Origin: a virus
DNA: 20,339 nucleotides
Strand: one strand, 5' to 3'
IMG/VR virus record: IMGVR_UViG_3300038318_000146
Location: 1 to 20,339 of that record
Below, piece after piece: positions 4,942-20,339 of the stretch. Within the stretch, counting starts at the first letter, position 1, and each line of letters starts with the position of its first letter. The translations under genes were made by a program, and so were the position numbers. The notes beneath the pieces are model-generated. The model did not search any database. It had not been told where the DNA came from and saw nothing but the letters and a program-made list of their open reading frames with translations.

Positions 4942-5430
4942 ATGAAACAGGGTGTAAAAGTTGGAGACAAGATTGTTTCCAATAAAAATGTAAAGGGTTG
5001 TGTGTTTTGTCAGAATCCAGATTTGAGTGCAGCAGTTGACCCAATTCTTTTTACGGCAAGTATTCCCATCAATGAACTGAAGAGTAAACTTGAAGCGGAT
5101 GGTATTTTTGTTGATGTTGCTGATCTCAAGTTACATCGTGAGCATATCTTTTTTGAGTATGATGAGAGTGCTGAATCCGATTTAGATATTGAGATTCAGA
5201 AGATTAAGGACACGGAAAATGTCGATGTTATTACAGAGGAACTTGCTAAGATTAACCTACTTGAACGTAGAATGGTTTTAGAGGGTAAGGAAAATAGTCC
5301 TACTCATGCAAAACTCTTACGTGAGAAGCGTGAACTTCTTTTGCTGAAAGCGCGTCTTGATGGTGAGATTGTTGATAAAGTTGAACACATTGTTCCTGCC
5401 TGGGTGCAGTATATTGAAGAAGAGAAATAA
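4942..5430 (+). CDS. terS: Terminase small subunit (start ATG 4942)
   Basis: Lies directly upstream of TerL with a TAATG stop/start overlap. N-terminal CVFC followed by helical and coiled segments. SD GAGGTG at 4930-4935. Confidence 0.7.
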   Translation: MKQGVKVGDKIVSNKNVKGCVFCQNPDLSAAVDPILFTASIPINELKSKLEADGIFVDVADLKLHREHIFFEYDESAESDLDIEIQKIKDTENVDVITEELAKINLLERRMVLEGKENSPTHAKLLREKRELLLLKARLDGEIVDKVEHIVPAWVQYIEEEK

Positions 5431-6905
5431 TGTCAAATATTGTTTATCATGGTAAACATCTTACTCTTTTTAACATTGCAAAATACATGCTTGGTTACGA
5501 GAAAATAACTAAAGATGTTCATAAAGAGTGGTGTGATAACCTTGAAGAAGTTATTAAGACTCGCAAACGTATTATGCGGTTAAAACCGCGTGGAACTTAC
5601 AAGACTACTATCTATGATGTTTCTTTTGTTATTGATCGTCTGCTTGATGATTACGTGAAACATGATGGTAAATTCACCTTACGTATTCTCATTACATCTG
5701 CAACCAACGATTTAGCAGAGCAGATTCTTTCTGAAATCAAAGAACAATTAAAGACTAATGAAAATTTGAAACAATTTTTTGCAGATTTCGGCAATGAAAA
5801 TATTATTGTCAAGGACAATCAGCAGGAAGTGGTTTTATATCCGCGTATTGTTAAGAAAGAACCAAATCTTAAAGCGCGTGGCGCTCTTGCTGCATTAACA
5901 TCAGAGCATTATGATATAATTATACTCGATGATGTGGTTAATAATGAAGATCGTGAATCTGCAACTATTAGAGAACAAAAGAAACGATGGTATAAAGATT
6001 TAATCTCTATTTTGGAGCCTGATGGTCTTTTAATGGTCATAGGCACGAGGTGGAGCGACAGTGAAATTTACGGCGAAATTATCGAGCAAAATCCAAAAAT
6101 ACCTGAATTTATGCGTTATGATATTGAGATTGATTCTATCATTGATGCTACAGGTAAACCAAAGTATCCATCCATCTACAACGAACAAAAGATTCAAGCA
6201 TTACGTATCGAAAAGGGTGCAGTAGAGTTTTCAAGTCAGTATTTAAATCAACCATTACCATCTGAAACACAGTTATTTAACATTGAAAATATGCATTATT
6301 ACACTGAACTGAAACTCCCACAGGAACGCGCACAGAATCCCTATTTCAAGGATTGTAGGCATGTTATTTACGTTGATCCTGCACTCGGTAATGAAAATGA
6401 TTATTGTGTAATTGTTGTGGGTGCAATTAAGGATCATGTTCTTTACGTAAGAGATTGTTGGTTAAGTAATACGTCACCGCCTAATGTCTCTATTGAAAAA
6501 ATGGTGTATTATTACAATTTTTATAATTGTGAAGAACTTGGCATTGAAACAAATGGTTTCCAGAGTCTTATTTCACAATTCCTCAAAGATCGTAATGATA
6601 AAATCAAAGACATGCGTAAGCGCATGAAGATTAAAGAAATTAAGAATCAGAAGAGAAAGCGGATTCGTATTGAGTCTGTTGAACCGTTTGTTACATCGGG
6701 AAAAGTCTTGTTCCGTGATGATTGGACAGAAGCGTATCCTGAGTTAATTAATCAATTAGTACGGTATCCGGTTCACAAACACGATGATGCCCCCGATGCG
6801 CTTGAAGGGCTTGTGCGAATGACAATCAATAGAGGTTCAGCATTAATAGACAAAGGAACACGCAGTAAACGTAAATTCATGATTGGAATAAATAGGAGAC
6901 ACTAA
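5430..6905 (+). CDS. terL: Terminase large subunit
   Basis: Walker A-like KPRGTYKTT, Walker B IILDDV, coupling motif IGTRW, and RNase H-like nuclease residues YVDPA, GIETNGFQ and HDDAPDALEG. Confidence 0.95.
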   Translation: MSNIVYHGKHLTLFNIAKYMLGYEKITKDVHKEWCDNLEEVIKTRKRIMRLKPRGTYKTTIYDVSFVIDRLLDDYVKHDGKFTLRILITSATNDLAEQILSEIKEQLKTNENLKQFFADFGNENIIVKDNQQEVVLYPRIVKKEPNLKARGALAALTSEHYDIIILDDVVNNEDRESATIREQKKRWYKDLISILEPDGLLMVIGTRWSDSEIYGEIIEQNPKIPEFMRYDIEIDSIIDATGKPKYPSIYNEQKIQALRIEKGAVEFSSQYLNQPLPSETQLFNIENMHYYTELKLPQERAQNPYFKDCRHVIYVDPALGNENDYCVIVVGAIKDHVLYVRDCWLSNTSPPNVSIEKMVYYYNFYNCEELGIETNGFQSLISQFLKDRNDKIKDMRKRMKIKEIKNQKRKRIRIESVEPFVTSGKVLFRDDWTEAYPELINQLVRYPVHKHDDAPDALEGLVRMTINRGSALIDKGTRSKRKFMIGINRRH

Positions 6906-6906
6906 T

Positions 6907-8268
6907 ATGGATAATGAAAATGCATCAATAGATTTAGAGCAGAAAAAATCTAAAATTGTTAAGGTTTTTGCATCGACTGGAATAGAGCGTAAGGATACTG
7001 TATATAAAGCAGGTGCTTACAGGAATTTTGATACAACTAATAGATTCAACTTGTATCGACAACTCTCGCTTACAAGTCCTCATGTGTTCATTCCGCTTCA
7101 GAAACTTGCCCTTACACTTGTAAAAGGTATCAGGTTTGAAGGAAAATCATCTGTTGTAAAGAATTTTGAAAAGTGGTCCGATAGAATCAATTTTGAGGAG
7201 AAAACACAAACTCTTGCACGATTACTATGTAGGGATGGAACTTACGTAGGACTTTATAATAATGTCAAGAATCCTGACAAAATGGGATTTGAACCCCTCC
7301 TTATGTCACAAACCACCATTGTTCCAAATGGAGTAACAAAGGGTAGTGCAGACACTACATTTATTCTTACACCACCTGTTAATCGCTTTTATGTCAATGA
7401 AATGGGTAATTTAAATGATTTAGAGGTAGGTTCTTACCGTCCAAATCAGGTAATGTATGGTTCATTCTGTGCGAATGATTACACGTTCAGAGATATTTTA
7501 GGTAGAGAAACGTATGGTATCTATGGCACTTCTCTGATTACGCCTATTGAGGATCTTATCTATAAATACTTAGATTTGGTTGAAGGTTACACTAATTACA
7601 TTAAAAAGTATGGTATTGGACGTTACTTTATTGACTACCGTATTCTTGGTGATATGCTTGCTTCCGGTGATATTTCAATGGTAGAAGCACAGGAAATCAT
7701 GCAGGAATTGAGCGATGAGCATCAGTATATTGCAGAGAATCAGGATATTATTGGTGCAGGATTTGATATTAAACAGTTAGATTCAGGTGGAAGTAACATC
7801 AATGTTACGGGATTCAAAGAATCGCTTGAAACCGATATTCAGGTTGGACTATTGCAGGCTCCTCTTACAATGGGTAGAGCAGAAGGAACTACGTATGCAG
7901 CGGGATATGTTTCCGAAGCAGATAGGTTAGTTGTGCTCGAAGGGTTACAAAAGAAGATTATGAGTATCCTGAATGATGAAGGTGGAATTGTCAAACAACG
8001 CGCGGTTGCAATGGGTAAGAATCCCGATGATATTAAAGTAGTCTTTGAAGAGTTATCAAAACCTGCTGTGCAGCCGGGTGATTTACTTGATGCTTACACG
8101 ATGTCTGTTATTAATAAACCTGAACTGCGTATATCGCTTGGATTCCCAAAAGATATGATTGAGAAAGATGAGCGTGATACTGGAGATAATACCATAGAAC
8201 TCTTGAAGCGTGGAAGAAAGAGTAGAAAACCTACTGATAATGGAATGAAATATCCTAGTGAAGAATAA
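6907..8268 (+). CDS. Portal protein
   Basis: 453 aa, immediately after terL and before a gp7-like gene. The segment IQVGLLQAPLTMGRAEGTTYAAG resembles the portal-family motif. Confidence 0.75.
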   Translation: MDNENASIDLEQKKSKIVKVFASTGIERKDTVYKAGAYRNFDTTNRFNLYRQLSLTSPHVFIPLQKLALTLVKGIRFEGKSSVVKNFEKWSDRINFEEKTQTLARLLCRDGTYVGLYNNVKNPDKMGFEPLLMSQTTIVPNGVTKGSADTTFILTPPVNRFYVNEMGNLNDLEVGSYRPNQVMYGSFCANDYTFRDILGRETYGIYGTSLITPIEDLIYKYLDLVEGYTNYIKKYGIGRYFIDYRILGDMLASGDISMVEAQEIMQELSDEHQYIAENQDIIGAGFDIKQLDSGGSNINVTGFKESLETDIQVGLLQAPLTMGRAEGTTYAAGYVSEADRLVVLEGLQKKIMSILNDEGGIVKQRAVAMGKNPDDIKVVFEELSKPAVQPGDLLDAYTMSVINKPELRISLGFPKDMIEKDERDTGDNTIELLKRGRKSRKPTDNGMKYPSEE

Positions 8269-8318
8269 CATATAACAACCTTTTTAATGTTGTTACAGGA
8301 AATAAAATAGTGATATAC

Positions 8319-9071
8319 ATGGAGTTGAATGTTGTTTATAATGAGGATTGTTTAGAAGGGATGAATCGGATTGAAGATAAGTCAGTTGATATGATTCTTT
8401 GCGATCTTCCTTATGGGACTACTCAAAACAAGTGGGATAGTGTTATACCCCTTGATTTATTGTGGGAACAATATAAAAGAATTATAAAAGATAATGGTGC
8501 TATTGTTCTTACAGGAAGTCAACCATTTACTTCATTGTTGGGCGCATCCAATATTAAAATGTTAAAATATTCATGGGTTTGGAAAAAAACATCAGTAACA
8601 GGTCATTTGAATGCAAAAAGAATGCCTATGAAAAATCATGAAGAAATATTAGTATTTTATCAAAAACAACCAACATATAATCCACAAAATGTAATTGATT
8701 TTAATAAGGTTGTTAAACGTGGTAATAACGGTAATTGTTATGGAGACAGTGGTAAGGTTAATTTTCAAGAAAAAACTAATTATCCACGTTCAATTTTAGA
8801 ATTTAAAAGTGTTGGTAAAACTATTCATCCAACCCAAAAACCTGTTGATCTCTTTGAATACTTAATCAAAACTTATACAAATGAAGGTGATACTGTTTTA
8901 GATAATTGTATGGGTAGCGGCACTACTGCAATCGCTTGTATGAACACGAATAGGAATTACATTGGGTTTGAATTAGATAAAGGGTATTATGATATTATTC
9001 TTGAAAGGATTAAGAATCATAAACCTGATGTAATTCAAGAGAGTAAACAAGGATTAGAAGCATGGTTTTAA
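8319..9071 (+). CDS. Orphan DNA methyltransferase, N4-C/N6-A beta class
   Basis: NEDCLEGM...MILCDLPYG (motif IV), HPTQKP, VLDNCMGSGTT (motif I), IGFELD. No cognate endonuclease nearby. Confidence 0.93.
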   Translation: MELNVVYNEDCLEGMNRIEDKSVDMILCDLPYGTTQNKWDSVIPLDLLWEQYKRIIKDNGAIVLTGSQPFTSLLGASNIKMLKYSWVWKKTSVTGHLNAKRMPMKNHEEILVFYQKQPTYNPQNVIDFNKVVKRGNNGNCYGDSGKVNFQEKTNYPRSILEFKSVGKTIHPTQKPVDLFEYLIKTYTNEGDTVLDNCMGSGTTAIACMNTNRNYIGFELDKGYYDIILERIKNHKPDVIQESKQGLEAWF

Positions 9072-9952
9072 GTTATTACAACGAAAGAAAGGTAATTCAG
9101 CAAGAAACTCGTATGAGTAGAACCCTGAATACCTTTTTTACTCGTTCTATTACAAGTATTCCAAACAAGTATCAAATCAATGATGCACTTGAACGTGCAT
9201 TGATTACAGAGTTGAACCGTCCTGTTTCGCGTGTAAAAGTTTCCAATAATATTTATGATGTTCTTACACTTGGTATAACAGAGGTAGAAAAGAGTGATTA
9301 TCAAGTGTATGCAGCAGAAGATGTAGTTGATGAGTATCGTGATATCGCAATGATAGAATATCTTATTGCTGTGCTCTTTTGGTCAAGTGGAAAGAATATC
9401 ATGCGCGATGTTTCTAATCGTTTCTATGCTACTTACACGGTAGATGAAATTGCTAAAATGACAGTGCATCAGGTTCAACAGCGATTACTCAATGTTTACA
9501 ATGATTCATTTGCACATCGCACAGGAATTGTTGCAAGGACACTTGTTAATGATATTTACAATTATGCAACAACGCAGACATATATTGATAATGGGATAAA
9601 TTATTTTCAGTTCCAGGCAGTAATTGATCATAGAACATCAGATATATGTCGCATGTTACACGGTTCTATTTTTCCTGCAAGTGTAGCACAATACTATCGT
9701 CCACCACTTCATTACAGGTGCAGGTCACGATTAATCGCACTTCAGGGGAACACAGTAAGGAATACAGGCATGATGTATGATAATCGTAATTTCTCTACCC
9801 TTTATGATGAAAACATGCGTTCTTACACTAGTAGCGCAATCACACCCACTGTTATTAATCAGGAATTACAGAGAATGAATACATTTAGGCAACAGTGGGT
9901 TTTGCCTGATGAATTATTATTTGAAGATTATTCTTACGTAAGAGGAATTTAA
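9062..9952 (+). CDS. Head morphogenesis protein, SPP1 gp7 / Mu gpF family
   Basis: ARTLVNDIYN...FQAVIDHRTSDICRMLHG...PPLHYRCRS pattern. The start could alternatively be ATG 9113. Confidence 0.88.
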   Translation: MVLSYYNERKVIQQETRMSRTLNTFFTRSITSIPNKYQINDALERALITELNRPVSRVKVSNNIYDVLTLGITEVEKSDYQVYAAEDVVDEYRDIAMIEYLIAVLFWSSGKNIMRDVSNRFYATYTVDEIAKMTVHQVQQRLLNVYNDSFAHRTGIVARTLVNDIYNYATTQTYIDNGINYFQFQAVIDHRTSDICRMLHGSIFPASVAQYYRPPLHYRCRSRLIALQGNTVRNTGMMYDNRNFSTLYDENMRSYTSSAITPTVINQELQRMNTFRQQWVLPDELLFEDYSYVRGI

Positions 9953-9953
9953 A

Positions 9954-11456
9954 ATGGATTATGAAATACCGTTAGAAGATGAAGTTGGATACCTCAATGA
10001 TGAAGAGTTAGTGCAGCGAATCAATGAACTGTGCCTTGATGTTTATGGTGAAGAATATTTTGAAATCTTTGGATTTGAAGAATATACGCGAGAACAGCGC
10101 ATATATCAGATGAAATATTTACAGCGTAAGAGTGATATTCTAGTCAAAGATTTATCAAGTAATCGTGAGGGATATAACTTCCTTGATTTGTGGCGTGAAT
10201 ATTGGAATACGCGCGTTGTGCTTAATTCTGATACTTGTGACATCTATGGGTTTGTAGCACTCTCACAACTCTTTAATCATGTGCGCGTTGAACGTGGTGT
10301 AAAGGATGATTTGCGCCTTCATGCGTGTGTTATAATGCCTTCCGGTATGGCAAAGAGTGAATTTAATGATATACTTGCTGAATTTACAGATATAGCGGAT
10401 AAAACATACTATTCTGTAGGTGAATTTAAAATTAATAAATTGATTGGAGAAATCAATAAGAAGATTGTTTCCAATAATATGCGTATCAATGCATTTAGTA
10501 AGAAAGATAGAGGTTGGGTTGATCCGATTGAACCCGGTGTGCTTGCGTCCTTTGATTTTGTGGTGTTTGATGAGGGTGAAGCGGTCCTTGACCATAAGAA
10601 GATTCGCATTCAGGCTATACTTGATAAGACCATGAATCGTATCGGTTCAAAGGGTAATATGATTACTTCTACAGATAACCGTATTCACTCGAATCCTGCC
10701 TGTTCTATTGTGATTACAAGTTATCATCTTGATACGTATACTCATCTGTTCAAGAAAGGATTATTCCCGCGCATGATTGTCTACGTGCAGCCGGAAGATC
10801 CTATCAAACGCACAAAGACTTCAGAGTATATTGTAAGTGCTATTCCTTCCTTTGTAGATGATATTTCTGAGGCAGAAAAGAAGCGTAAGGACAAAAAGAG
10901 GTTACAAGATAAACTGCGTAAGAAACTGAAGGAAGAAGTAGAGAATCTACAGAACATGCATAAGGATACTGAAACTATCTATATGCGCGCGGGTGTAGAT
11001 GAGATTATCAACGAATACATTACAGAATTACGCAATATTGTTCCGGGGTTGAATCCTGAACAAATTGAAGCGTGGGAATCAATGGTGTCGCGTGTATCAA
11101 TTAATTTCATTAAAGTGGCTGCACTCTTCGCTATGATGAACTATCGTAATTATATTGATAGAGAGGATGCACACAATGCCGCACGTTTATTATTCCCTGC
11201 CATGCGTTCAGTAGCGTTCTATATCATTTCTAACAACACAGGACGCAACGAGAAGTTAAACAGGCTTGTTATGCGCTTACGTCGGGAATATATCGGTATG
11301 CGCTACACAAAAGAAGAATGGCAAAAAGTGTTCTTCAAGAATTTTGGTGCTGGAGAAGGTTCTTCTGAAAAACTCATTGCATTACTCATAGAAAGTGGAA
11401 AGATGCGTGTATTAAAGAACAAGGAAGAAGATACCACTGTATACATGCTATCTTAA
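9954..11456 (+). CDS. Divergent MCM-like AAA+ helicase
   Basis: Walker A MPSGMAKSE (MCM-type AKS), IEPGVLASFDFVVFDEGE (MCM-like Walker B region), GLFPRM arginine finger, sensor-2-like SRVSINFIKVAALFA...DAHNAARL, probable C-terminal winged helix. Confidence 0.7.
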   Translation: MDYEIPLEDEVGYLNDEELVQRINELCLDVYGEEYFEIFGFEEYTREQRIYQMKYLQRKSDILVKDLSSNREGYNFLDLWREYWNTRVVLNSDTCDIYGFVALSQLFNHVRVERGVKDDLRLHACVIMPSGMAKSEFNDILAEFTDIADKTYYSVGEFKINKLIGEINKKIVSNNMRINAFSKKDRGWVDPIEPGVLASFDFVVFDEGEAVLDHKKIRIQAILDKTMNRIGSKGNMITSTDNRIHSNPACSIVITSYHLDTYTHLFKKGLFPRMIVYVQPEDPIKRTKTSEYIVSAIPSFVDDISEAEKKRKDKKRLQDKLRKKLKEEVENLQNMHKDTETIYMRAGVDEIINEYITELRNIVPGLNPEQIEAWESMVSRVSINFIKVAALFAMMNYRNYIDREDAHNAARLLFPAMRSVAFYIISNNTGRNEKLNRLVMRLRREYIGMRYTKEEWQKVFFKNFGAGEGSSEKLIALLIESGKMRVLKNKEEDTTVYMLS

Positions 11457-11481: not shown

Positions 11482-11500
11482 CACCAATAACATATTGGTG
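11482..11500 (+). promoter_or_regulatory. Hairpin over the putative SD of the SSB gene
   Basis: CACCAATA-ACA-TATTGGTG is a perfect 8-bp stem whose 3' arm contains GGTG. A T-run/TATA-like TTTTTATA lies at 11466-11473. Confidence 0.5.
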
Positions 11501-11506
11501 CTTAGA

Positions 11507-12613
11507 TTGGCATTGAAAAGTAAGAAAGACAAGTCCACCGATGTGGATGAGAGCATTGTAGCAAGAATCAATGAGATTGCAGAAAGAGCCGGTGAACGTC
11601 CCGATGTTATTATGGCAGAGTATAAGAAACGCTTTGCTGAATACATGAAGCGGGATGGTATTACCGCGTCTAAGGCAAGTATTGTTACCATTAAATCGAT
11701 TGTTGGTTCCTACAACGCTGCATTACGTTCTAATATGTCACCGATTAAGGGTTTCTTCTTTGGTTACACTCGACCACGTAATGTCACAGAGAAGGCAAAC
11801 AAAGACGCTGAAGAGCAGATTACAATGTATCAGAAGATGTTTGGTGATGAGTGGAAGGAAAACGCTATCACCGATGGTCTGATTGATGTAGATGGTAATC
11901 TGCTTTACACTAAGAAGAATACTACTACATTTCAGTCTTTCTTGATTGGTAAGAAAATTCCAAAGGTTCAGATGGAGAATAGAGCATTTGGATTCTTTGA
12001 AATGCCTAATTCTGGTGAGGTTAAACCGGGAATTGTGTATGTAAAAGACCCTGCAAACTTTGTTCCTGAATTTGGCAAGGTCTATATGTTCAAGGGAACG
12101 TGCAAGGATGAGAATAAAGACATCGTAAACATCTCTACTGGTATTAACACATCTAAACTTGTTGAACTTGATGATGACTTTGATTACGATGAATTTGTTA
12201 CACTTGTAGAGGATTCACTTGGTGATAATTGTGCTGCTTTTGAAGATGTATATGACGTTGCGAATCAGGTAGTAAATGGAGAGTATAAGGAGCAGAAGTT
12301 CTTACTTGCAGAGGTAATCATTTCCAAGATTAGTATCTTTGATACTTTCGCATATGTTGAAGTGACGCCTCTTGATGATGGATTTGAGGGCAATGTTACA
12401 CTTTCTTGTGAATTGAATACAGTTGCAGGTCTTTGTGAGCAGGCAGTAGGCATTATTTGTTTCAAGCCTTACTTCAATAAGAAGGGTGAAGCAAGTGGTA
12501 ATCTGTTTGGTTTCGTCACCGATCCTAAATTCTCTCGCCCTGAAGATTCGTATGAGATTGCAGAGGATGTAGAGACTGTTGATGCACCTGTTGAGGATGA
12601 CGATTTCCTCTAA
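11507..12613 (+). CDS. Putative single-stranded DNA-binding protein (RPA/OB-fold-like); probable TTG start at 11507
   Basis: RPA-like N-terminal helical region (INEIAERAGERPDVIMAEYKKRF), beta-rich body, strongly acidic tail ending EDDDFL, and position in the replication module. Confidence 0.6.
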   Translation: MALKSKKDKSTDVDESIVARINEIAERAGERPDVIMAEYKKRFAEYMKRDGITASKASIVTIKSIVGSYNAALRSNMSPIKGFFFGYTRPRNVTEKANKDAEEQITMYQKMFGDEWKENAITDGLIDVDGNLLYTKKNTTTFQSFLIGKKIPKVQMENRAFGFFEMPNSGEVKPGIVYVKDPANFVPEFGKVYMFKGTCKDENKDIVNISTGINTSKLVELDDDFDYDEFVTLVEDSLGDNCAAFEDVYDVANQVVNGEYKEQKFLLAEVIISKISIFDTFAYVEVTPLDDGFEGNVTLSCELNTVAGLCEQAVGIICFKPYFNKKGEASGNLFGFVTDPKFSRPEDSYEIAEDVETVDAPVEDDDFL

Positions 12614-12841: not shown

Positions 12842-12852
12842 GAGGAATGATT

Positions 12853-13692
12853 ATGGCACTTGGTAAAAGGTCTTTAGATAAAGCAGTAGAAGAGATACAG
12901 CAGAAGGAAGATCCTACTGCATCATTCTCCTATGATGATGCAATTCTTTCTCTTCAGAGTAAAGACATTATTTCGATTTATGGAGACAAAGGCACAGGTA
13001 AGACAACTACTACTTACGGTTTAATCGCTCCAGGTTCAAGTGTAAAAGTTTTATCGTTTGATACTAACAGTGTCTTACCAATGGAACTTGATTATATCAA
13101 GAATCAGAATCTTAATATTGAAGTGCTTAATTCTCTTCGACCATATGATCGTTCAACGGCAGAAGATATGTTACGCACTTCGGAAATTGTTTGTAAATGG
13201 AATGCATATTTACTTGATTATATTAAAGATAAAGATGAAAAAAATAATACTGAAACCGATTGGATTGTTGTAGATGGTATCGAACAGTATACAGAGATTT
13301 GTGAGAATGCGGGACGTTTTGAGTTAAAAATAGATAAGTATCAGGGTGTTCCCAATCCTACAGTTTGGAAGATTCGTAACATGCATATTGATAACCTACA
13401 TGATAAGTGTGTTGCAACTGCAAAGGTTGGCGTTATCTACATTATGTATCCCAAGACTGATACATCACTTGTAAGAATGGGTCAGGTTATTGAATCTGAA
13501 CGGACACCAAAATGGGTTAGTAAAGTAATGAAAGAGTCTCAAATAAAGATTCATACAACGAGTGAATTTGTTAAAGAAAATGCTCGTTACTTTGCAATTG
13601 TTGAATCGAGTAAGAAGGAGAAGAAGTATCCTCCAGGTAAGTATGATGTTACCGGGACAACTCTGTATAAACTAATTAATGGAAAGGAGTGA
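12853..13692 (+). CDS. P-loop ATPase, RecA superfamily (AAA_24 / Sak4-like recombination protein)
   Basis: Walker A GDKGTGKT, Walker B WIVVDG, and W..RN motif (WKIRN); lies next to the SSB. Confidence 0.7.
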   Translation: MALGKRSLDKAVEEIQQKEDPTASFSYDDAILSLQSKDIISIYGDKGTGKTTTTYGLIAPGSSVKVLSFDTNSVLPMELDYIKNQNLNIEVLNSLRPYDRSTAEDMLRTSEIVCKWNAYLLDYIKDKDEKNNTETDWIVVDGIEQYTEICENAGRFELKIDKYQGVPNPTVWKIRNMHIDNLHDKCVATAKVGVIYIMYPKTDTSLVRMGQVIESERTPKWVSKVMKESQIKIHTTSEFVKENARYFAIVESSKKEKKYPPGKYDVTGTTLYKLINGKE

Positions 13693-13697
13693 TTATA

Positions 13698-14480
13698 ATG
13701 CATGTTTCTGTTAATACCCTGAAGAATTTTATCAACGTGCTTGGAATTGCGATGAATGGTGATATGGTTATTACACGTAAGCCCAATGAAAATATCATTG
13801 CGAGTGTAACCAACACTGAGAAGCGAGTAATGATTACTGCCTTTATTGCAAATGGTAAGCAGGTTGAATATGATGTTGACGAGTCTGTTGAGATGTGCAT
13901 CAATGAACTTGACTTCAGGAAGCGGTATCTTGCAAACTTCGATGAAGAGTATGTTGGTGTTGTTACAACTGACGATTTGATTGTTCTATCTGACGATAAA
14001 CTAACGGTTAATGTTCCACAGATTGATTACGAGTATGCCTCACGGAGTATTCCGGGTAAGAGTATCGAGGACATTAAATCATCTATTCCTCCGCGTGAGA
14101 TTGTTATTGCGTTTGATGCAGACGACATCCAGAAGTTTATCAAGGTTGCAAAGAATCTTAATGAAACCATTGTGCGATTTACTATTCCTGTAGAGGGAGA
14201 ATATATCAATCTAAGCACTGATAAGCGTTCTAAACTCGAAGTTCATGCGGATATTGATAACAAGTATGGTGAGGAGTTTACTGTTGAATTTGATATCAAT
14301 GCCCTTGAAGATTCGTTTGCAGAGGCACAGTTAGATATTACGATGGGATTTGTCACTGAACAGACAAAGGATCAGTATGGTAATGATGTTCTCTACCCTG
14401 TTACGTTTGATTACATTACGGGTAAGAACACGGAAATTGATGTCTCTGGTTTACTTATTCCTCACAAAATTACGTGGTGA
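13698..14480 (+). CDS. DNA polymerase sliding clamp (PCNA / gp45-like)
   Basis: About 260 aa and acidic, with a two-domain alpha/beta repeat pattern (TLKNFINVL...; DIQKFIKVAKNL...; EFDINALED); directly upstream of the clamp loader. Confidence 0.8.
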   Translation: MHVSVNTLKNFINVLGIAMNGDMVITRKPNENIIASVTNTEKRVMITAFIANGKQVEYDVDESVEMCINELDFRKRYLANFDEEYVGVVTTDDLIVLSDDKLTVNVPQIDYEYASRSIPGKSIEDIKSSIPPREIVIAFDADDIQKFIKVAKNLNETIVRFTIPVEGEYINLSTDKRSKLEVHADIDNKYGEEFTVEFDINALEDSFAEAQLDITMGFVTEQTKDQYGNDVLYPVTFDYITGKNTEIDVSGLLIPHKITW

Positions 14481-14485
14481 TGTGA

Positions 14486-15412
14486 ATGATTACCAACAAA
14501 CTTTTTGTGGAGAAATATCGCCCACAAACGTTTGAGGATTACATTGGTAATGATACCACTGTAATTGCTGGATTACGCAAAGTTGTAAGGGAGAATCCAT
14601 TTTCTCTTCCTAATTTGATTTTTGAATCGTCGGCGGGAACAGGTAAGACTACACTTGCCAAAATCATTATCAATGAACTTGGTGCTGACAAACTGTATCT
14701 AAATGCATCAGATGAGCGTGGTATTGATACGGTGCGTGAAAAGGTTAAAGCATTTGCTTCTACTGTATCATTCAAGTCTGATGTGCCTAAGATTGTGCAT
14801 CTCGATGAAGCAGATGGTTTAACCGCTGATGCACAGAATATTCTCCGTAACATTATGGAAGAGTATTCTTCTCGTTGTCGATTCATCCTTACGTGTAATG
14901 TAATTTCAAAGATTATTGAACCACTCCGTTCTAGGTGTAAGGTTGTATCTTTTGGTAAACCTGCACGTAATGAGATTCTTACACGATTAAGACACATCTG
15001 CACCGAAGAGGACATTACCATTGACGATATAAGTCTCAATGAGATTATTGATGTCAATTACCCTGATATTCGCTCGATGGTGAAGTCTCTTGATATTTAC
15101 AAGAATCTTGGTGAATTAGACACTAAGAAGAATATCAATGTTGCAGATGAACTTTACACGTTAATCAAGGGTAGGAAAATCACTGAAGCACGTAAACTGT
15201 GGAATAGTAACACGGTTGATTACCGGAGCATTACATTCCAAATCTACCTGAAAGTGTGGAATGATGATTCTCTTTCTGCCTCTGACAAGATTTCTGCCAT
15301 TGAAATTGTAGCAGAATCAGATTACAGAATGGTTTATGGTGCTAATGCAGAGATTACCTTTGCAAACATGGCCTTTAAACTCATGCGTATTCTTGGTAAG
15401 AGAGGTGCGTAA
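14486..15412 (+). CDS. rfcS: Clamp loader AAA+ subunit (RFC small / T4 gp44-like)
   Basis: VEKYRPQTF, Walker A SAGTGKTT, LNASDERGIDTVR, Walker B LDEAD, LRSRC (SRC motif). Confidence 0.95.
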   Translation: MITNKLFVEKYRPQTFEDYIGNDTTVIAGLRKVVRENPFSLPNLIFESSAGTGKTTLAKIIINELGADKLYLNASDERGIDTVREKVKAFASTVSFKSDVPKIVHLDEADGLTADAQNILRNIMEEYSSRCRFILTCNVISKIIEPLRSRCKVVSFGKPARNEILTRLRHICTEEDITIDDISLNEIIDVNYPDIRSMVKSLDIYKNLGELDTKKNINVADELYTLIKGRKITEARKLWNSNTVDYRSITFQIYLKVWNDDSLSASDKISAIEIVAESDYRMVYGANAEITFANMAFKLMRILGKRGA

Positions 15413-15654
15413 TGGATAACAAATCAACCATTAAACTCATCAAGAAACATGGTAAGAGTTATAGTGGTAAAACCAATCTTATTAATTTTCTCGAAGGTAA
15501 ACATATCACACGCAAGGAAGCGATAAGTGCTTATTGTTACGATTGTCAGGGATATTGTGAAGATGGTAGAGTAGAGTGTGAGCAGTTACAGTGTCCTTTG
15601 TATTCTTACAGTCAGTTCAACAAATACAACATTAACAAGAGTGATAAAGAATGA
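15412..15654 (+). CDS. Small Cys-rich phage protein (AISAYCYDC...C...CPLY family)
   Basis: CxxC...C...CPL pattern common in uncharacterised phage proteins; overlaps its neighbours. Confidence 0.75.
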   Translation: MDNKSTIKLIKKHGKSYSGKTNLINFLEGKHITRKEAISAYCYDCQGYCEDGRVECEQLQCPLYSYSQFNKYNINKSDKE

Positions 15655-16202
15655 TTCTGGTAGACTATCAGATTAAACAGTGTATTGACTATGGAAACCT
15701 GATTATTACACCATTTGATGAAGAGAGTGTAAATCCCAATTCATATGACTTACACCTTTCAAATCAGTTCAAATATTACATTAATAACGGGCAGATGATT
15801 GATCCGTATGATAGGAATACAATTCTCTACGGACATGAAGTAATTGAAGGTAACACCTTTACAATTCAACCTGGAATGTTTGTGCTTGCTGTTTCACAAG
15901 AGACTATTGCCTTACCTAAGAACATTGCAGCAGCATGTGAAGGTAAATCATCTCTTGCTCGCCTGGGTCTTACCATTCATCAAACTGGAGGATGGATTGA
16001 TGCAGGTTTCGGTGGAACTCTTACGTTTGAACTCTACAATGTAAATAATCGTTCCATTCGTCTTTACAGTGGTATGCCAATTGCACAGTTAGTATTCTTC
16101 GAGGGTGAAACGTGTAGGGTAGGATATAATGAGAAATCATCTTCCAAATACAAGAATCAGACAGGTGCAACTCTTTCACGGTATCATTTGACTAAGGTGT
16201 AA
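15651..16202 (+). CDS. dcd: dCTP deaminase
   Basis: NPNSYDLHL, EGKSSLARLGL, IDAGFGGTLTFELYN, IAQLVF, KYKNQ. Confidence 0.93.
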   Translation: MILVDYQIKQCIDYGNLIITPFDEESVNPNSYDLHLSNQFKYYINNGQMIDPYDRNTILYGHEVIEGNTFTIQPGMFVLAVSQETIALPKNIAAACEGKSSLARLGLTIHQTGGWIDAGFGGTLTFELYNVNNRSIRLYSGMPIAQLVFFEGETCRVGYNEKSSSKYKNQTGATLSRYHLTKV

Positions 16203-16207
16203 TAAGA

Positions 16208-16498
16208 ATGAAACTTCTTTTTAATTACTCTGACTTTCACAAGTTCCCTCTCGATGCATGTTTCTCTACCTTACGCTTACTCCTCAATGACAATTTCAAT
16301 GGTGTCTACAAAGATGAGAATGGTAAACTCATTGCAGTCTTTGATTACAATGAAACAGAACGTGAGCAACGTATCATCCGTTCTGCATCAGGTTTTCTTG
16401 AAAATTATGGTTACGATTTAAAGCATCATACAGAGATTGTTGAATCGGTAGAGAACCTTGAATTTGTCACTAAAACGTGCGGTGTAGACTATGAGTAA
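16208..16498 (+). CDS. Hypothetical protein (96 aa)
   Basis: Operonic position; its stop overlaps the next gene's start. Confidence 0.7.
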   Translation: MKLLFNYSDFHKFPLDACFSTLRLLLNDNFNGVYKDENGKLIAVFDYNETEREQRIIRSASGFLENYGYDLKHHTEIVESVENLEFVTKTCGVDYE

Positions 16499-17441
16499 GA
16501 TTGATAAAATATATTCATCAAAATATTCACGTAGTTATACTAAAGATGAACTAGTGGCGATGAATAAATTATCTCTAGAAGAGAAGATAAAATTAACTAA
16601 TGATATTATAGATGAATTTTATACAGTAACTAATGGTTTAATGTATGTTTCTTTCAGTGGTGGTAAAGATTCTACTGTAATGGCTGATATTATTCTGAAA
16701 AGGTATCCCGATACACCTTTAGTTTTCTGTAATACGGGTTTGGAATATCCAGAAATTGTAGAATTTGTAAAACGTAGACAGAATGTAGTGTTTCTTAAAC
16801 CATCAAAACCATTTCATAAAGTATTAGAAGAACATGGTTATCCGGTTATTAGTAAGGAACAATCGCGTTATATTGAGGATGTGCAAAATAAAAGAAATAA
16901 TTGGGAAAGAAGATTAACAGGTAATAGTTTTGTTATTTCTAAAAAATGGAGATATTTAGTTGATGCACCTTTCAAAATATCTGAAAAGTGTTGTTTATAT
17001 CTCAAAAAAAATCCAATGAAAAAATATGAACATGAAACAAAGAGACAACCTCTGATTGGTGTAATGTTTAATGATAGTAATCTGCGTTTAAAATATATGT
17101 TAGAACAGGGTTTAATTCGTAATAATTCACGATTACAATGCACACCATTAGGTTTCTGGTCAGAGCAGGATATTTTAGAATACTTAGCAACATATAATCT
17201 TGATTACGCTTCAGTGTATGGTGATTTAACAAAGGAAAACGGTATATATAAATTATCAGGAGTACAACATACAGGTTGTATGTTCTGTATGTTTGGGGTT
17301 CATCTTGAGAAGGGCGAGAACAAGTTTCAACGAATGAAGAAAACACATCCTAAACAATGGGAATTTTGTATACATAAGTTAGGATTGGGTGAAATCCTTG
17401 ATTACATTGGTGTTGACTACGGTAAAGATAAATTCTGGTAG
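16491..17441 (+). CDS. PAPS-reductase-family PP-loop protein 1 (Fe-S motif)
   Basis: SFSGGKDS PP-loop, FCNTGLEYPE, KCC, TGCMFC. Confidence 0.9.
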   Translation: MSKIDKIYSSKYSRSYTKDELVAMNKLSLEEKIKLTNDIIDEFYTVTNGLMYVSFSGGKDSTVMADIILKRYPDTPLVFCNTGLEYPEIVEFVKRRQNVVFLKPSKPFHKVLEEHGYPVISKEQSRYIEDVQNKRNNWERRLTGNSFVISKKWRYLVDAPFKISEKCCLYLKKNPMKKYEHETKRQPLIGVMFNDSNLRLKYMLEQGLIRNNSRLQCTPLGFWSEQDILEYLATYNLDYASVYGDLTKENGIYKLSGVQHTGCMFCMFGVHLEKGENKFQRMKKTHPKQWEFCIHKLGLGEILDYIGVDYGKDKFW

Positions 17442-17450
17442 AGGTGCATT

Positions 17451-17939
17451 ATGAGTAAGATGGATGTGCATTATTCCTCAAAGGATATGGAATGGGAAAC
17501 TCCGCGTGATTTATTCGATGCATTGAACGACGAATTTAATTTTACGCTTGATCCGTGTGCAACATCACAGAACACGAAGTGTTACAAGTTCTTCACCATT
17601 GAAGATAATGGACTTCACAAAGATTGGAGTAAAGATATAGTCTTTATGAATCCACCTTACGGTAAGGAAATACCACGATGGGTAGAGAAGGCATATAATG
17701 AAGCATTATGTGGTGCTACCGTTGTTTGTCTTATTCCTGCTCGCACTGATACATCATATTGGCATAAATACATCATGCTTGCTGATGAGATTAGATTTAT
17801 CAGTGGTAGAGTTAAATTTACTAATCCTACTCATCGTAAACCTATGGCAGCACCATTTCCATCCTGCATTGTAGTATTTGGTGAACGTATGCGTAATGGA
17901 TTAACGAGTAAGGAGTGTATTAAATGCCGTTCAATTTAA
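17451..17939 (+). CDS. Phage N6-adenine DNA methyltransferase (phage Dam family)
   Basis: WETP..LF..L..EF.FTLDPCA, VFMNPPYG, LIPARTDTSYWH, IRFISGRVKF, APFPS. Confidence 0.93.
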   Translation: MSKMDVHYSSKDMEWETPRDLFDALNDEFNFTLDPCATSQNTKCYKFFTIEDNGLHKDWSKDIVFMNPPYGKEIPRWVEKAYNEALCGATVVCLIPARTDTSYWHKYIMLADEIRFISGRVKFTNPTHRKPMAAPFPSCIVVFGERMRNGLTSKECIKCRSI

Positions 17940-17940: not shown

Positions 17941-17958
17941 ACGTAATGGTGATTGATT

Positions 17959-18732
17959 ATGTTACGTGAAACAACATTTGAAGGTGTAATTGACAAGGAA
18001 TTAGTTGCAATAGAGCGTATTAAACAGTATGAACCAGAAGAAGGGTATTACGTTGCATTTAGTGGTGGTAAAGATAGTATTGTAGTTTATGATTTGGTGA
18101 AACGTGCAGGTGTTAAACATGATGTTCATTTTAGTGCGACTACAGTTGATCCACCTGAAGTTGTCAAATTCATAAAAACATATTATCCAGAAGTTGATTG
18201 GATTCGTCCTAAAAAATCAATGTTTCAAATAATTGTTAAACATATGATGTTACCTAAAGGTAATATGAGATTTTGTTGTCACGAATTAAAAGAAATTGGC
18301 GGCAAAGGAAGAACTGTTGTTCTTGGGGTGCGAAGAGAAGAATCAGTGAGGAGAAGAAACAGATTGGTATATGATGAATCTAAACGCCAAAAAGGAAAAA
18401 TGTTTCTTAATCCGATAGTTGATTGGTCTGAAGATGAAGTGTGGGAGTATATACATAAATATAATATACCTTATCCATGTTTATATGATGAAGGTTATAA
18501 ACGGATAGGTTGTATTTTATGCCCATTACAAAATATCAAAGGGAAAGAAAGAGATAAAGAACGGTATCCTAAATATTATAATGCTTATTTACTCGCTATA
18601 AAAAGAATGTTAAAAAAAAGAGAAGAAATTGGTAAACCGTTTAGAAATGGTAAAACACCGGAAGAAGTAATGAATTGGTGGATATATGGTAATAAAAAAC
18701 AAATAATCGAGTGTGAAAATGCATGGTGGTGA
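17959..18732 (+). CDS. PAPS-reductase-family PP-loop protein 2 (Fe-S motif); start ATG 17959
   Basis: AFSGGKDS, RFCC..LKE, LGVRREES..R, NPIVDWS..EVW.YI, LYDEGYKRIGCILCP; SD GGTGA at 17948-17952. Confidence 0.92.
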   Translation: MLRETTFEGVIDKELVAIERIKQYEPEEGYYVAFSGGKDSIVVYDLVKRAGVKHDVHFSATTVDPPEVVKFIKTYYPEVDWIRPKKSMFQIIVKHMMLPKGNMRFCCHELKEIGGKGRTVVLGVRREESVRRRNRLVYDESKRQKGKMFLNPIVDWSEDEVWEYIHKYNIPYPCLYDEGYKRIGCILCPLQNIKGKERDKERYPKYYNAYLLAIKRMLKKREEIGKPFRNGKTPEEVMNWWIYGNKKQIIECENAWW

Positions 18733-18733
18733 T

Positions 18734-18754
18734 TTAAATGCCGTTCAATTTAAT
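18734..18754 (+). repeat. 21-bp direct repeat, copy 2
   Basis: Exact match to 17920-17940; contains the start of the 18738 gene. Confidence 0.95.
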
Positions 18755-19244
18755 GAAGCGTATCATCAGTAAGGAGCAAATCTACCCTTCACAACTTGTA
18801 GGAAAGGAATACATGCTTCTCCGTATCTTTTCACAGGATGTAATGTATTTGGAGGAAGCGGATAAACTTAATCAATATTTATTCAAGATCAATCCATCTA
18901 TCTTCCGTGGATTACTTCTCCTACACGTTCAACAATTGAATCATATGCCTACCTGGATTCGTAAGGATAAGGTGAAGAAGGACAAGTTGGATACACTACT
19001 TGATGATTATTACGAGAAAACATCAAGTGCGCTTGATATGAGTAAGAAAGAGTTTGATGAGTATTCACCTCTTATTAAGATGCATATCAGTGACAAAGAT
19101 AACATGAAAACATTCCTTGCAGAAATGCAAGCAGATGAACAAATGTTTAAGAAACAGAAGGTTGCACTCGTAATGCCTGATAAAACACGCATTGAACAAT
19201 CGAAGAAGTCACATCAATGCAATTCACTTGATTACTTCTTTTAA
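18738..19244 (+). CDS. Clamp loader A subunit, T4 gp62-like
   Basis: YMLLRIFS...ADKLNQY...WIRKDKVK...YY aligns by eye with short gp62 homologues (NxxLS...N...WLRKDK...YY). C-terminal clamp-binding-like SLDYFF. Directly upstream of PolB. Confidence 0.75.
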   Translation: MPFNLMKRIISKEQIYPSQLVGKEYMLLRIFSQDVMYLEEADKLNQYLFKINPSIFRGLLLLHVQQLNHMPTWIRKDKVKKDKLDTLLDDYYEKTSSALDMSKKEFDEYSPLIKMHISDKDNMKTFLAEMQADEQMFKKQKVALVMPDKTRIEQSKKSHQCNSLDYFF

Positions 19245-19297: not shown

Positions 19298-20339
19298 ATG
19301 ATTATAACCGAATCGATAGGGGATTCTATTATCATTCGTGGTCGAGATGAACACGGTGAGCGTTATGAGCAACGTATCAATCGCTTTCAACCCTATTTTT
19401 ACATTCCACGGCAGACTGTTGTAGGTGAAACTTATTATTCTCTGTTTGGAGAGACATTACAGCGTATTACGTGCGTTAATCAAAAGGACTTCAAATCATC
19501 GAGAAAACTGCATGAAATAACGTATGAAGGTGATGTGCCCCCTACTATTAGATACCTGATTGATAATTACTACCAAAAAGGTATTGAAAGTGAGGTGATT
19601 AGGGTATGTTTTTTTGATATTGAGACGGATGGAATACCCAATATCACGAAGGCAGACACTATGATTACTTCCATTGCTGCCTATGACAACTTCCGTAATC
19701 TCTATTATTGTTTTACAGTTGCACCTGATGGAGTAGTCAGTAAGGACAAATACACTCGTAAGATTCATTTTGATGGAAATGAAGTTGAAGCGCGTGTATT
19801 TATGTTTGCTACTGAAAAGGAAATGCTTAATAAATTTCTTGCATTGGTGCAACAACTTGATTTTGATCTCTTCCTTGCATGGAATGGTGATAGATTTGAT
19901 TATCCTTACCTATTTAACCGCATGAAAGCGTTGAAAATTAATCCACGTTTGTTATCTCCCATTAAACAGATGGGTAAGGGTTATGGTGACATTGTAGACA
20001 AACCACGCTGTAGGATTTGGTTAGATTTAATGGTGTGCTACAAGAAACTGTCTACACAGGAAATGGAATCATACTCCCTGGATTACATATCACGTTATGA
20101 ATTGGGTGCAGGTAAGATTGAGCATCAAGAAAAGTTTGAGGACTTTTGGCGCAATAATCTTGACAAGTTCATCGAGTATAATATCAAAGATGTCTACCTC
20201 ATGGTAAAGATCGAAGAGTCAAAGGGCATTGTCAAATATTTTGATACTATTCGTCGCTTTACTTTTTGCAGTTGGTATGATGTATTCTACAATAGTAAGG
20301 TACTTGATTGTTTCTTTTTACTCAAGGCTAAAGAGTATG
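19298..20339 (+). CDS. polB: Family B DNA polymerase, N-terminal and 3'-5' exonuclease part (truncated by the window end; not in ORF track)
   Basis: Hand-translated open frame from ATG 19298 to the end: FQPYFY, ExoI FFDIET, ExoII AWNGDRFDYPYL, SYSLDYI, ExoIII YNIKDV. Confidence 0.95.
   Translation, partial: MIITESIGDSIIIRGRDEHGERYEQRINRFQPYFYIPRQTVVGETYYSLFGETLQRITCVNQKDFKSSRKLHEITYEGDVPPTIRYLIDNYYQKGIESEVIRVCFFDIETDGIPNITKADTMITSIAAYDNFRNLYYCFTVAPDGVVSKDKYTRKIHFDGNEVEARVFMFATEKEMLNKFLALVQQLDFDLFLAWNGDRFDYPYLFNRMKALKINPRLLSPIKQMGKGYGDIVDKPRCRIWLDLMVCYKKLSTQEMESYSLDYISRYELGAGKIEHQEKFEDFWRNNLDKFIEYNIKDVYLMVKIEESKGIVKYFDTIRRFTFCSWYDVFYNSKVLDCFFLLKAKEY

Follow-up and report, generated by a model that had tools for sequence, protein, structure and literature searches.

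The window analysed here, positions 1-20,339 of the IMG/VR record IMGVR_UViG_3300038318_000146, is a 20.3-kb fragment of an uncultured tailed virus, about 29% complete, and we were interested in the C-terminal tail of a DNA methyltransferase (MTase) that it encodes at 8310-9071 (253 aa; alternative start ATG at 8319). All features of the window named below lie on the plus strand. A complete genome of 69,364 bp with terminal repeats (G001) and two further close relatives, 90-93% complete, served for comparison. The MTase gene lies between the genes for the portal protein (6907-8268), which had no match in the phage collection, and a MuF-like head morphogenesis protein (9062-9952; Pfam PF04233, E 1e-10). 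Its product matches Pfam PF01555 (N6_N4_Mtase) at residues 26-231 (E 1e-30; 107.7 bits against a cut-off of 26.7) as well as phrog_67 (E 1.5e-85), and the order of its motifs, DLPY in the N-terminal part ahead of MGSGTT in the C-terminal part, is the arrangement of beta-class N6/N4 enzymes. The closest named homologues, with 55-65% identity mostly over residues 4-241, were found in Staphylococcus, Bacillus, Enterococcus, Brochothrix and Geobacillus phages; for MTases from the first three of these, identity reaches about 64% over residues 4-234. As no restriction nuclease adjoins the gene, and the corresponding slot in relatives holds copies of the MTase and no nuclease, the enzyme can fairly be called an orphan MTase, as had been proposed in an earlier reading made from the letters of the window (the sequence-only reading).

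The same reading had described an extension beyond the MTase fold. Positions 9024-9071 encode PDVIQESKQGLEAWF followed by a stop codon, thus forming the end of the 253-aa open reading frame (ORF) with the terminal residues SKQGLEAWF. The solved relatives M.MboIIA, DpnA, CcrM and RsrI align no further than residues 227-239, the Pfam match ends at residue 231, and most homologues stop a few residues after ...ERI..HK. The fold therefore ends at about residues 234-238, and the last ~16 residues are a true extension, as had been claimed. A variable linker, HKPDVIQESKQ (9018-9050), joins the fold to the terminal motif, G-L-E-A-W-F (9051-9068), which is the candidate clamp-interacting peptide and directly precedes the stop codon (9069-9071). 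The distribution of the tail was read from the 120 best database homologues of the MTase, a comparison that the sequence-only reading had suggested. A terminal ...G-L-(E/K)-x-W-F was present in 18 of the 120, with the consensus ...HKP(D/T/N/V)(V/I)IQ(E/D)S(K/S)(Q/P)-G-L-(E/K)-x-W-F. The other 102, which come from bacteria and from phages of Bacillus, Staphylococcus and Geobacillus, end with the fold, so that the tail is absent outside the lineage of this virus. All tail-bearing homologues with retrievable genomic context occupy the portal-MTase-MuF slot of the same virus group, and a clamp gene was found together with them wherever the contig was long enough. These data support the view of an orphan beta-class MTase with an extension that is specific to this lineage.

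In the 18 homologues and in three paralogues on the related contig L004, the residues G, L, W and F as well as the extreme C-terminal position are invariant. The E is nearly invariant, being replaced by K in one cluster (P0089), and the x position is T, A, L, S, I or Q. The invariant residues L249, W252 and F253 correspond to the aliphatic position 4 and the aromatic pair 7-8 of a PIP (PCNA-interacting peptide) box. The linker varies by substitutions and, in some relatives, by a 4-residue insertion (HKPDVKPD...), with both flanks constant, and one L004 paralogue carries a wholly different linker, HKMNCVTYDSKP, yet keeps GLExWF. Docking peptides and other short linear motifs typically show this combination of a constant end and a linker that varies, and the clamp epitope of T4 gp55 has been described in like manner (PMC2988020).

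A tail of the same kind is found on the DNA polymerase of the virus. A gene for a family-B (gp43-type) DNA polymerase (PolB; 19298-20339; Pfam DNA_pol_B_exo1) runs off the end of the window after its first 347 codons, and the tail of this protein was read from full-length orthologues (774 aa) that are 89-98% identical over the part within the window. They end ...HELDG(I/V)ERFW, in which the G(I/V)ERFW tail follows shortly on the conserved (I/M)GW at the close of the polymerase. In the corresponding position, gp43 of a T4-like cyanophage ends ...ITISSFFS, and PolB of Halorubrum tailed virus 25 (HRTV-25), the closest named relative of the virus's PolB with 28% identity, carries a canonical PIP box, ...QTGLGAFV. 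In T4, the clamp peptide 892-SLDFLF-897 of gp43 forms a one-turn helix in a hydrophobic pocket between both domains of one gp45 subunit (PMC12746103), and in RB69 basic pocket residues of the clamp meet acidic groups of the peptide (PMC3012046). By homology with the polymerases of T4, RB69, cyanophage and HRTV-25, we infer that the PolB tail of this virus is a clamp-binding peptide.

Alignment at the C-terminus placed GIERFW of PolB, GLEAWF of the MTase, SLDYFF of a 168-aa protein encoded directly upstream of PolB (18738-19244), GKDKFW of a PAPS-reductase-family enzyme (enzyme 1; 16491-17441; Pfam PF01507) and SLDFLF of T4 gp43 below one another. The likeness of GLEAWF to the T4 peptide is one of pattern, seen by eye (small-Leu-acidic-x-aromatic-aromatic), with weak BLOSUM similarity. 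The sequence-only reading had already pointed to the end NSLDYFF of the 168-aa protein, which is borne out by the ORF translation. Its label 'gp62-like' for this protein found no confirmation, as no match was obtained in Pfam, PHROGs, PDB (single sequence and profile) or Atlas, and the protein has no assigned family. In G001, for which 99 called ORFs with 20,815 residues were counted, four of the 99 ORFs end in [FW][FW] compared to 0.33 expected (P about 4e-4). These four are PolB, the MTase, the 168-aa protein and PAPS-reductase-like enzyme 1, all encoded in the replication/DNA-modification block. The 6-residue pattern [GS][LIVMK][DE]x[FW][FW], set post hoc once the tails were known, occurs four times in the 20,815 residues, in all cases C-terminally and in the replication block. 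When the PolB tail GIERFW was used as a fixed query in G001, the top other C-termini were those of PAPS-reductase-like enzyme 1 (p 1.5e-4 per 6-mer) and then of the MTase (p 1.8e-3), with 0.17 of 98 C-termini expected to reach the score of the MTase. The tail of PAPS-reductase-like enzyme 1 is also an addition: most of its 120 homologues (P0135-P0254) end ...GV(K/D)Y, and only the lineage of this virus adds the six residues GKD(K/T)FW or GKNDFW.

The proposed docking partner is encoded at 13698-14480 (260 aa), an ORF without Pfam, PHROG or phage-BLAST match for which an exhaustive search led to only 14 relatives. A profile built from these 14 matches T4 gp45 (1czd; E 6e-5) and RB69 gp45 (1b77), and an AlphaFold2 (AF2) model with a predicted local distance difference test (pLDDT) of 92.3 and a predicted template-modelling score of 0.88 retrieved PCNAs in Foldseek (TM 0.70-0.74, E 1e-12). 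Within the ORF as listed, codon four is the true start of the protein, and the gene lies directly upstream of that for a clamp loader ATPase of the gp44/RFC-small type (14486-15412; phrog_168, E 1e-75; Pfam AAA, Gp44_lid and Rep_fac_C). Profile and model thus show the protein to be a sliding clamp of the gp45/PCNA type with the two-domain fold, in line with the sequence-only reading, which had named it as the clamp; it presumably forms a trimeric ring.

The motif class proposed earlier needs correction. In the sequence-only reading the tail was compared to the PIP box, Qxx(L/I/M)xx(F/W)(F/Y/L), and its aliphatic L and aromatic pair WF do fit. The Q does not, being located two residues before the L instead of three, and P takes its place in the variants SSPGLExWF and SKPGLEQWF. 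From the Q that is out of register and replaced by P, the acidic residue after the L and the extreme C-terminal location, the motif is of the T4 type and not a Qxx(L/I/M)xx(F/W)(F/Y/L) box. The tail of the MTase shares with T4-type peptides its extreme terminal location, its position outside the fold and its variable linker. Bacterial beta-clamps bind the consensus QL(S/D)LF or QLxLxL, to which QGLEAWF does not fit by inspection.

Taken together, the tail of the MTase probably docks on the viral sliding clamp as a T4-type clamp-interacting peptide that copies the tail of the polymerase. It would then bind the same site of the clamp as the PolB tail, and docking would couple methylation to replication. 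According to the mechanism that we propose, an anti-restriction (orphan) enzyme would have been captured from the pool of beta-class MTases of the Firmicutes-phage type and fitted with a flexible linker of ~11 residues and a C-terminal G-L-E-x-W-F-COOH, which would mimic G(I/V)ERFW-COOH of the virus's own family-B polymerase. Most likely, this peptide would enter the hydrophobic pocket of the gp45/PCNA-type clamp as SLDFLF of T4 gp43 does, and the MTase tethered to the clamp at or behind the fork could scan and methylate nascent viral DNA ahead of cutting by host restriction enzymes.

The MTase gene also behaves like a cassette. Among its variants, the N-terminal ~70 and the C-terminal ~80 residues are almost identical, with a hypervariable middle (the region of the target-recognition domain), and codons 224-238 show almost no variation at the DNA level, third positions included. 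The slot between portal and MuF contains no MTase in G003/L086, one in most relatives and three in tandem in L004 (L004:4883-7228). These three paralogues are 61-75% identical to the MTase of the window, the third being split into two ORFs; all three retain GLExWF, and behind each internal copy the MuF start is repeated as a stub, MVLSYYNEIK and a stop codon. In L086, without MTase, MuF starts from a GTG at the portal stop. The L004 array looks like a set of cassettes for swapping or stacking methylation specificities.

Several observations weigh against docking on the clamp, first of all an overlap that had been missed in the sequence-only reading and that confounds any argument from conservation. 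The last codons of the tail overlap the start of MuF, gcATGGTTTTAA, and its likely ribosome-binding site. This initiation region (9049-9064) comprises AAGGA from the Gln-Gly codons (9049-9053), 8 nt upstream of the ATG (9062-9064), and the x codon is always NNA, by which the MuF ATG is kept. (Fusion of the MTase to MuF by a -1 frameshift was also weighed but put aside, as by inspection the overlap lacks a slippery heptamer of the usual form.) At the DNA level, TTA GAA NNA TGG TTT TAA is invariant except for NN, and among 8 distinct DNA sequences only the Gly codon varies synonymously, with the result that constraint on the protein and constraint on the DNA are not separable for the tail. The invariant tail could also reflect the recombination flanks of the MTase cassette instead of selection on the protein; given this overlap, and recombination of cassettes with near-identical ends, conservation of the tail alone cannot decide. 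In addition, the match of the MTase and PolB tails is one of type and not of identity (GLEAWF versus GIERFW; BLOSUM p 1.8e-3 per 6-mer), and the 6-residue pattern was chosen with the tails in hand. A second MTase of the window, of the Dam type (17451-17939; PF05869), ends ...KCRSI without an aromatic tail, so the motif is not universal among modification enzymes. Finally, the AF2 model of the MTase (alignment of 16 sequences; mean pLDDT 52, residues 212-253 below 50) is too poor to tell a free tail from a packed one. Following from the overlap, the tail might be a mere by-product of gene packing: an MTase cassette inserted upstream of MuF would read through the ribosome-binding site and start of the latter to the first stop, and the constancy of the tail would be due to MuF initiation and a recombination flank, with no role of the peptide. 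The overlap itself, the near-zero variation in codons 224-238, which indicates homogenisation of the MTase end at the DNA level, and the MuF starts duplicated with the L004 copies are all as expected for such an origin. Nevertheless, we consider it unlikely, as it leaves unexplained the likeness of the peptide to the tails of PolB, the 168-aa protein and PAPS-reductase-like enzyme 1, for which the chance expectation is about 0.17 such C-termini per genome or less. The ends of the 168-aa protein and PAPS-reductase-like enzyme 1 in the window and of PolB in G001 do not lie inside the start of a downstream gene, and an overlap of the MuF type can therefore not account for the common tail in these three. 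Moreover, residues 2-3 of MuF are not conserved (MVL compared to VIIV in L086), so MuF does not need TGG TTT, and the TTA GAA spacer is invariant though it has no obvious role in initiation.

If the tail is a docking peptide, its partner might still be a different hub, namely the clamp of the host (archaeal PCNA or bacterial beta-clamp), a viral SSB or helicase, or the portal/MuF complex, the latter for packing of the enzyme into the capsid and its injection. The location of the gene between portal and MuF would agree with a role in the capsid, KQGLEAWF is only one residue off an archaeal PIP box such as QTGLGAFV of HRTV-25, and the sole hint on the host is a 1.3-kb contig binned to Cloacimonadota. 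We regard such a partner as quite improbable, however, because the same kind of tail is present on the polymerase, whose family has established clamp binding, and because the virus itself has genes for a clamp and a loader. The tail departs from the bacterial QL(S/D)LF, the non-conserved Q speaks against a canonical PIP box, and packaging of a polymerase and of PAPS-reductase-like enzymes through the same tail seems unlikely. A purely structural function, with the tail folding back on the catalytic core or mediating dimerisation, may be considered as well, as some beta-class MTases are dimers and AF2 places a short helix at residues 248-252, though with very low confidence. This has very little probability in our view: homologues at 60-70% identity work without the tail, the linker differs in length and sequence, and the same tail is found on unrelated folds.

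Clamp-docking peptides on T4 proteins and the interaction of DNMT1 with PCNA are textbook knowledge. In the paper library that was searched, a clamp-docking tail was not found described for any MTase of a phage or of the restriction type. The clients of T4/RB69 gp45 (gp43, gp55 and gp33) resemble the proteins described here in that a variable linker precedes a short hydrophobic/acidic peptide at their very C-terminus (PMC2988020, PMC12746103, PMC3012046). There, polymerase and non-polymerase clients use one virus-encoded trimeric clamp, and here the same kind of tail is found on both, together with a gp45-related clamp and a gp44-like loader. The clients differ: in T4 they are the polymerase, RNase H, ligase and late-transcription factors, whereas the candidates in this virus include a restriction-type MTase and PAPS-reductase-like proteins. 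Unlike in T4, the motif ends in Trp-Phe or Phe-Trp, and binding is here deduced from sequence. In DNMT1, a clamp-binding peptide recruits a DNA methyltransferase to newly replicated DNA (PMC1934996, PMC9690074), as proposed here. DNMT1, a large C5-cytosine MTase, has an epigenetic role and carries a canonical PIP box (PCNA-binding domain, PBD) in its N-terminal part, whereas the viral beta-class N6/N4 MTase is small, has its T4-type tail at the C-terminus and presumably serves in anti-restriction, and both share no homology beyond the S-adenosylmethionine (AdoMet) fold. The archaeal C-terminal PIP boxes, represented by QTGLGAFV of HRTV-25 PolB, have the same extreme C-terminal place, a G-L core and an aromatic pair; compared to them, the Gln of the MTase is shifted by one residue and gives way to P in many relatives, and an acidic residue follows the Leu as in T4. 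Orphan MTases of Firmicutes phages (phrog_67; for example from Bacillus phage PK-3 and Staphylococcus phage O1-69) and M.MboIIA/DpnA have the same beta-class fold with DLPY and MGSGTT, but the phage enzymes end at the fold, and none of those listed bears GLExWF. The plasmid MTases M.EcoGIX and M.BceJIII are likewise enzymes of mobile elements, and their activity depends on association with the replication machinery (Pol I co-purification; PMC7736820). They belong to another enzyme class and have another partner, and neither has been described as carrying a clamp peptide.

Should the tail dock on the clamp, the methylation that protects the viral DNA would be coupled to the replication fork and independent of free diffusion. 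This would be a viral counterpart of DNMT1-PCNA that evolved independently, and it would help to explain how fast-replicating viruses shield new DNA from host restriction. The clients known for phage clamps would be joined by DNA-modifying enzymes, and such enzymes could be found by a simple sequence rule, namely a C-terminus copying the tail of the polymerase.

Similar tails were observed in more distant viruses. L148, a distant relative in which the gene order is the same and the clamp is 36% identical to that of the window, encodes a D12-class adenine MTase beside the clamp loader (L148:8063-9339). The 40-residue extension of this MTase ends ...DHGWW, and the L148 homologue of the 168-aa protein (35% identical) ends GLSRWFD. 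In distant T4-like PolB loci (L105-L125), the protein encoded directly upstream of PolB ends (N/D)LKQF(F/L)x, such as NLKQFF(N/E), and PolB itself ends (I/V)NKFF(I/T)F(N/D/E), such as INKFFIFN. The upstream protein, which we take by its appearance to be MazG-like, may be another client from outside the replisome with a polymerase-like tail. These upstream proteins were also considered as homologues of the 168-aa protein, but this was rejected by alignment, and the loci are a parallel case and not one of orthology. When longer contigs of distant clamp relatives were sought for their PolB tails, none was found for P0124 in viral and metagenome contigs, and the contigs of P0122, P0125, P0126, P0129 and P0134 were short or uninformative in this respect.

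As a tentative and broader interpretation, which may well prove wrong, this virus group might tether a whole DNA-modification kit to its own clamp via polymerase-like peptides, namely swappable MTase cassettes (0-3 per genome, with different target-recognition domains) and PAPS-reductase-family enzymes. The tail would then be a portable adaptor that captured enzymes must acquire, and relatives in temperate phages lacking a clamp would carry a host-clamp motif instead. Anti-restriction modification would in this case be physically coupled to replication.

The window encodes a second PAPS-reductase-family enzyme (17953-18732; Pfam PF01507 at residues 33-191 of 259), which ends ...ENAWW. Another group of this family adds R(V/R)N(S/N)LF(G) at its end, and this might, as no more than a guess, be a motif for the host beta-clamp. 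Two contigs of this group (L154 and L155) are temperate-siphophage-like, with a DnaB helicase or SSB and Sipho_Gp157 and, in one of them, a CI-type repressor; no clamp was in view on either contig.

Further genes of the window encode a DUF3987/primase-like protein (9954-11456), an AAA_24 ATPase (12847-13692) and a dCTP deaminase-like protein (15651-16202). A 372-aa protein (11495-12613) ends ...VEDDDFL, resembling the acidic tail of SSB, and a PD-(D/E)XK nuclease of G001 (L138:4698-5384, minus strand) ends ...TQDDFL. These DDFL-type ends may represent a second common docking tail. G001 further encodes an ERCC4 (XPF/Mus81-type) nuclease of 211 aa (L138:2918-3553, minus strand), a domain unusual in phages, with the end ...ETIEALNFL, which is hydrophobic but not of the GLExWF type. 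A 1053-aa protein of G001 with the end ...CACGYSRCG is presumably an anaerobic ribonucleotide reductase, judging by eye.

Concerning the host, the nearest named relatives of PolB are from a haloarchaeal tailed virus and T4-like cyanophages. A 1.3-kb contig (L153; JAKQQL010000246.1) encoding a terminase 93% identical to that of the window was binned to a metagenome-assembled genome of Candidatus Cloacimonadota, which is a weak hint on host or habitat. Given these mixed PolB relatives, the ERCC4 nuclease, the ribonucleotide reductase-like protein and the Cloacimonadota-binned contig, the label 'archaeal virus' was not adopted. The large terminase has 491 aa in the window (5430-6905) compared to 840 aa in G001 (L139:7676-10198, minus strand), and the additional part in G001 includes a LAGLIDADG domain, which likely reflects an intein or the insertion of a homing endonuclease.

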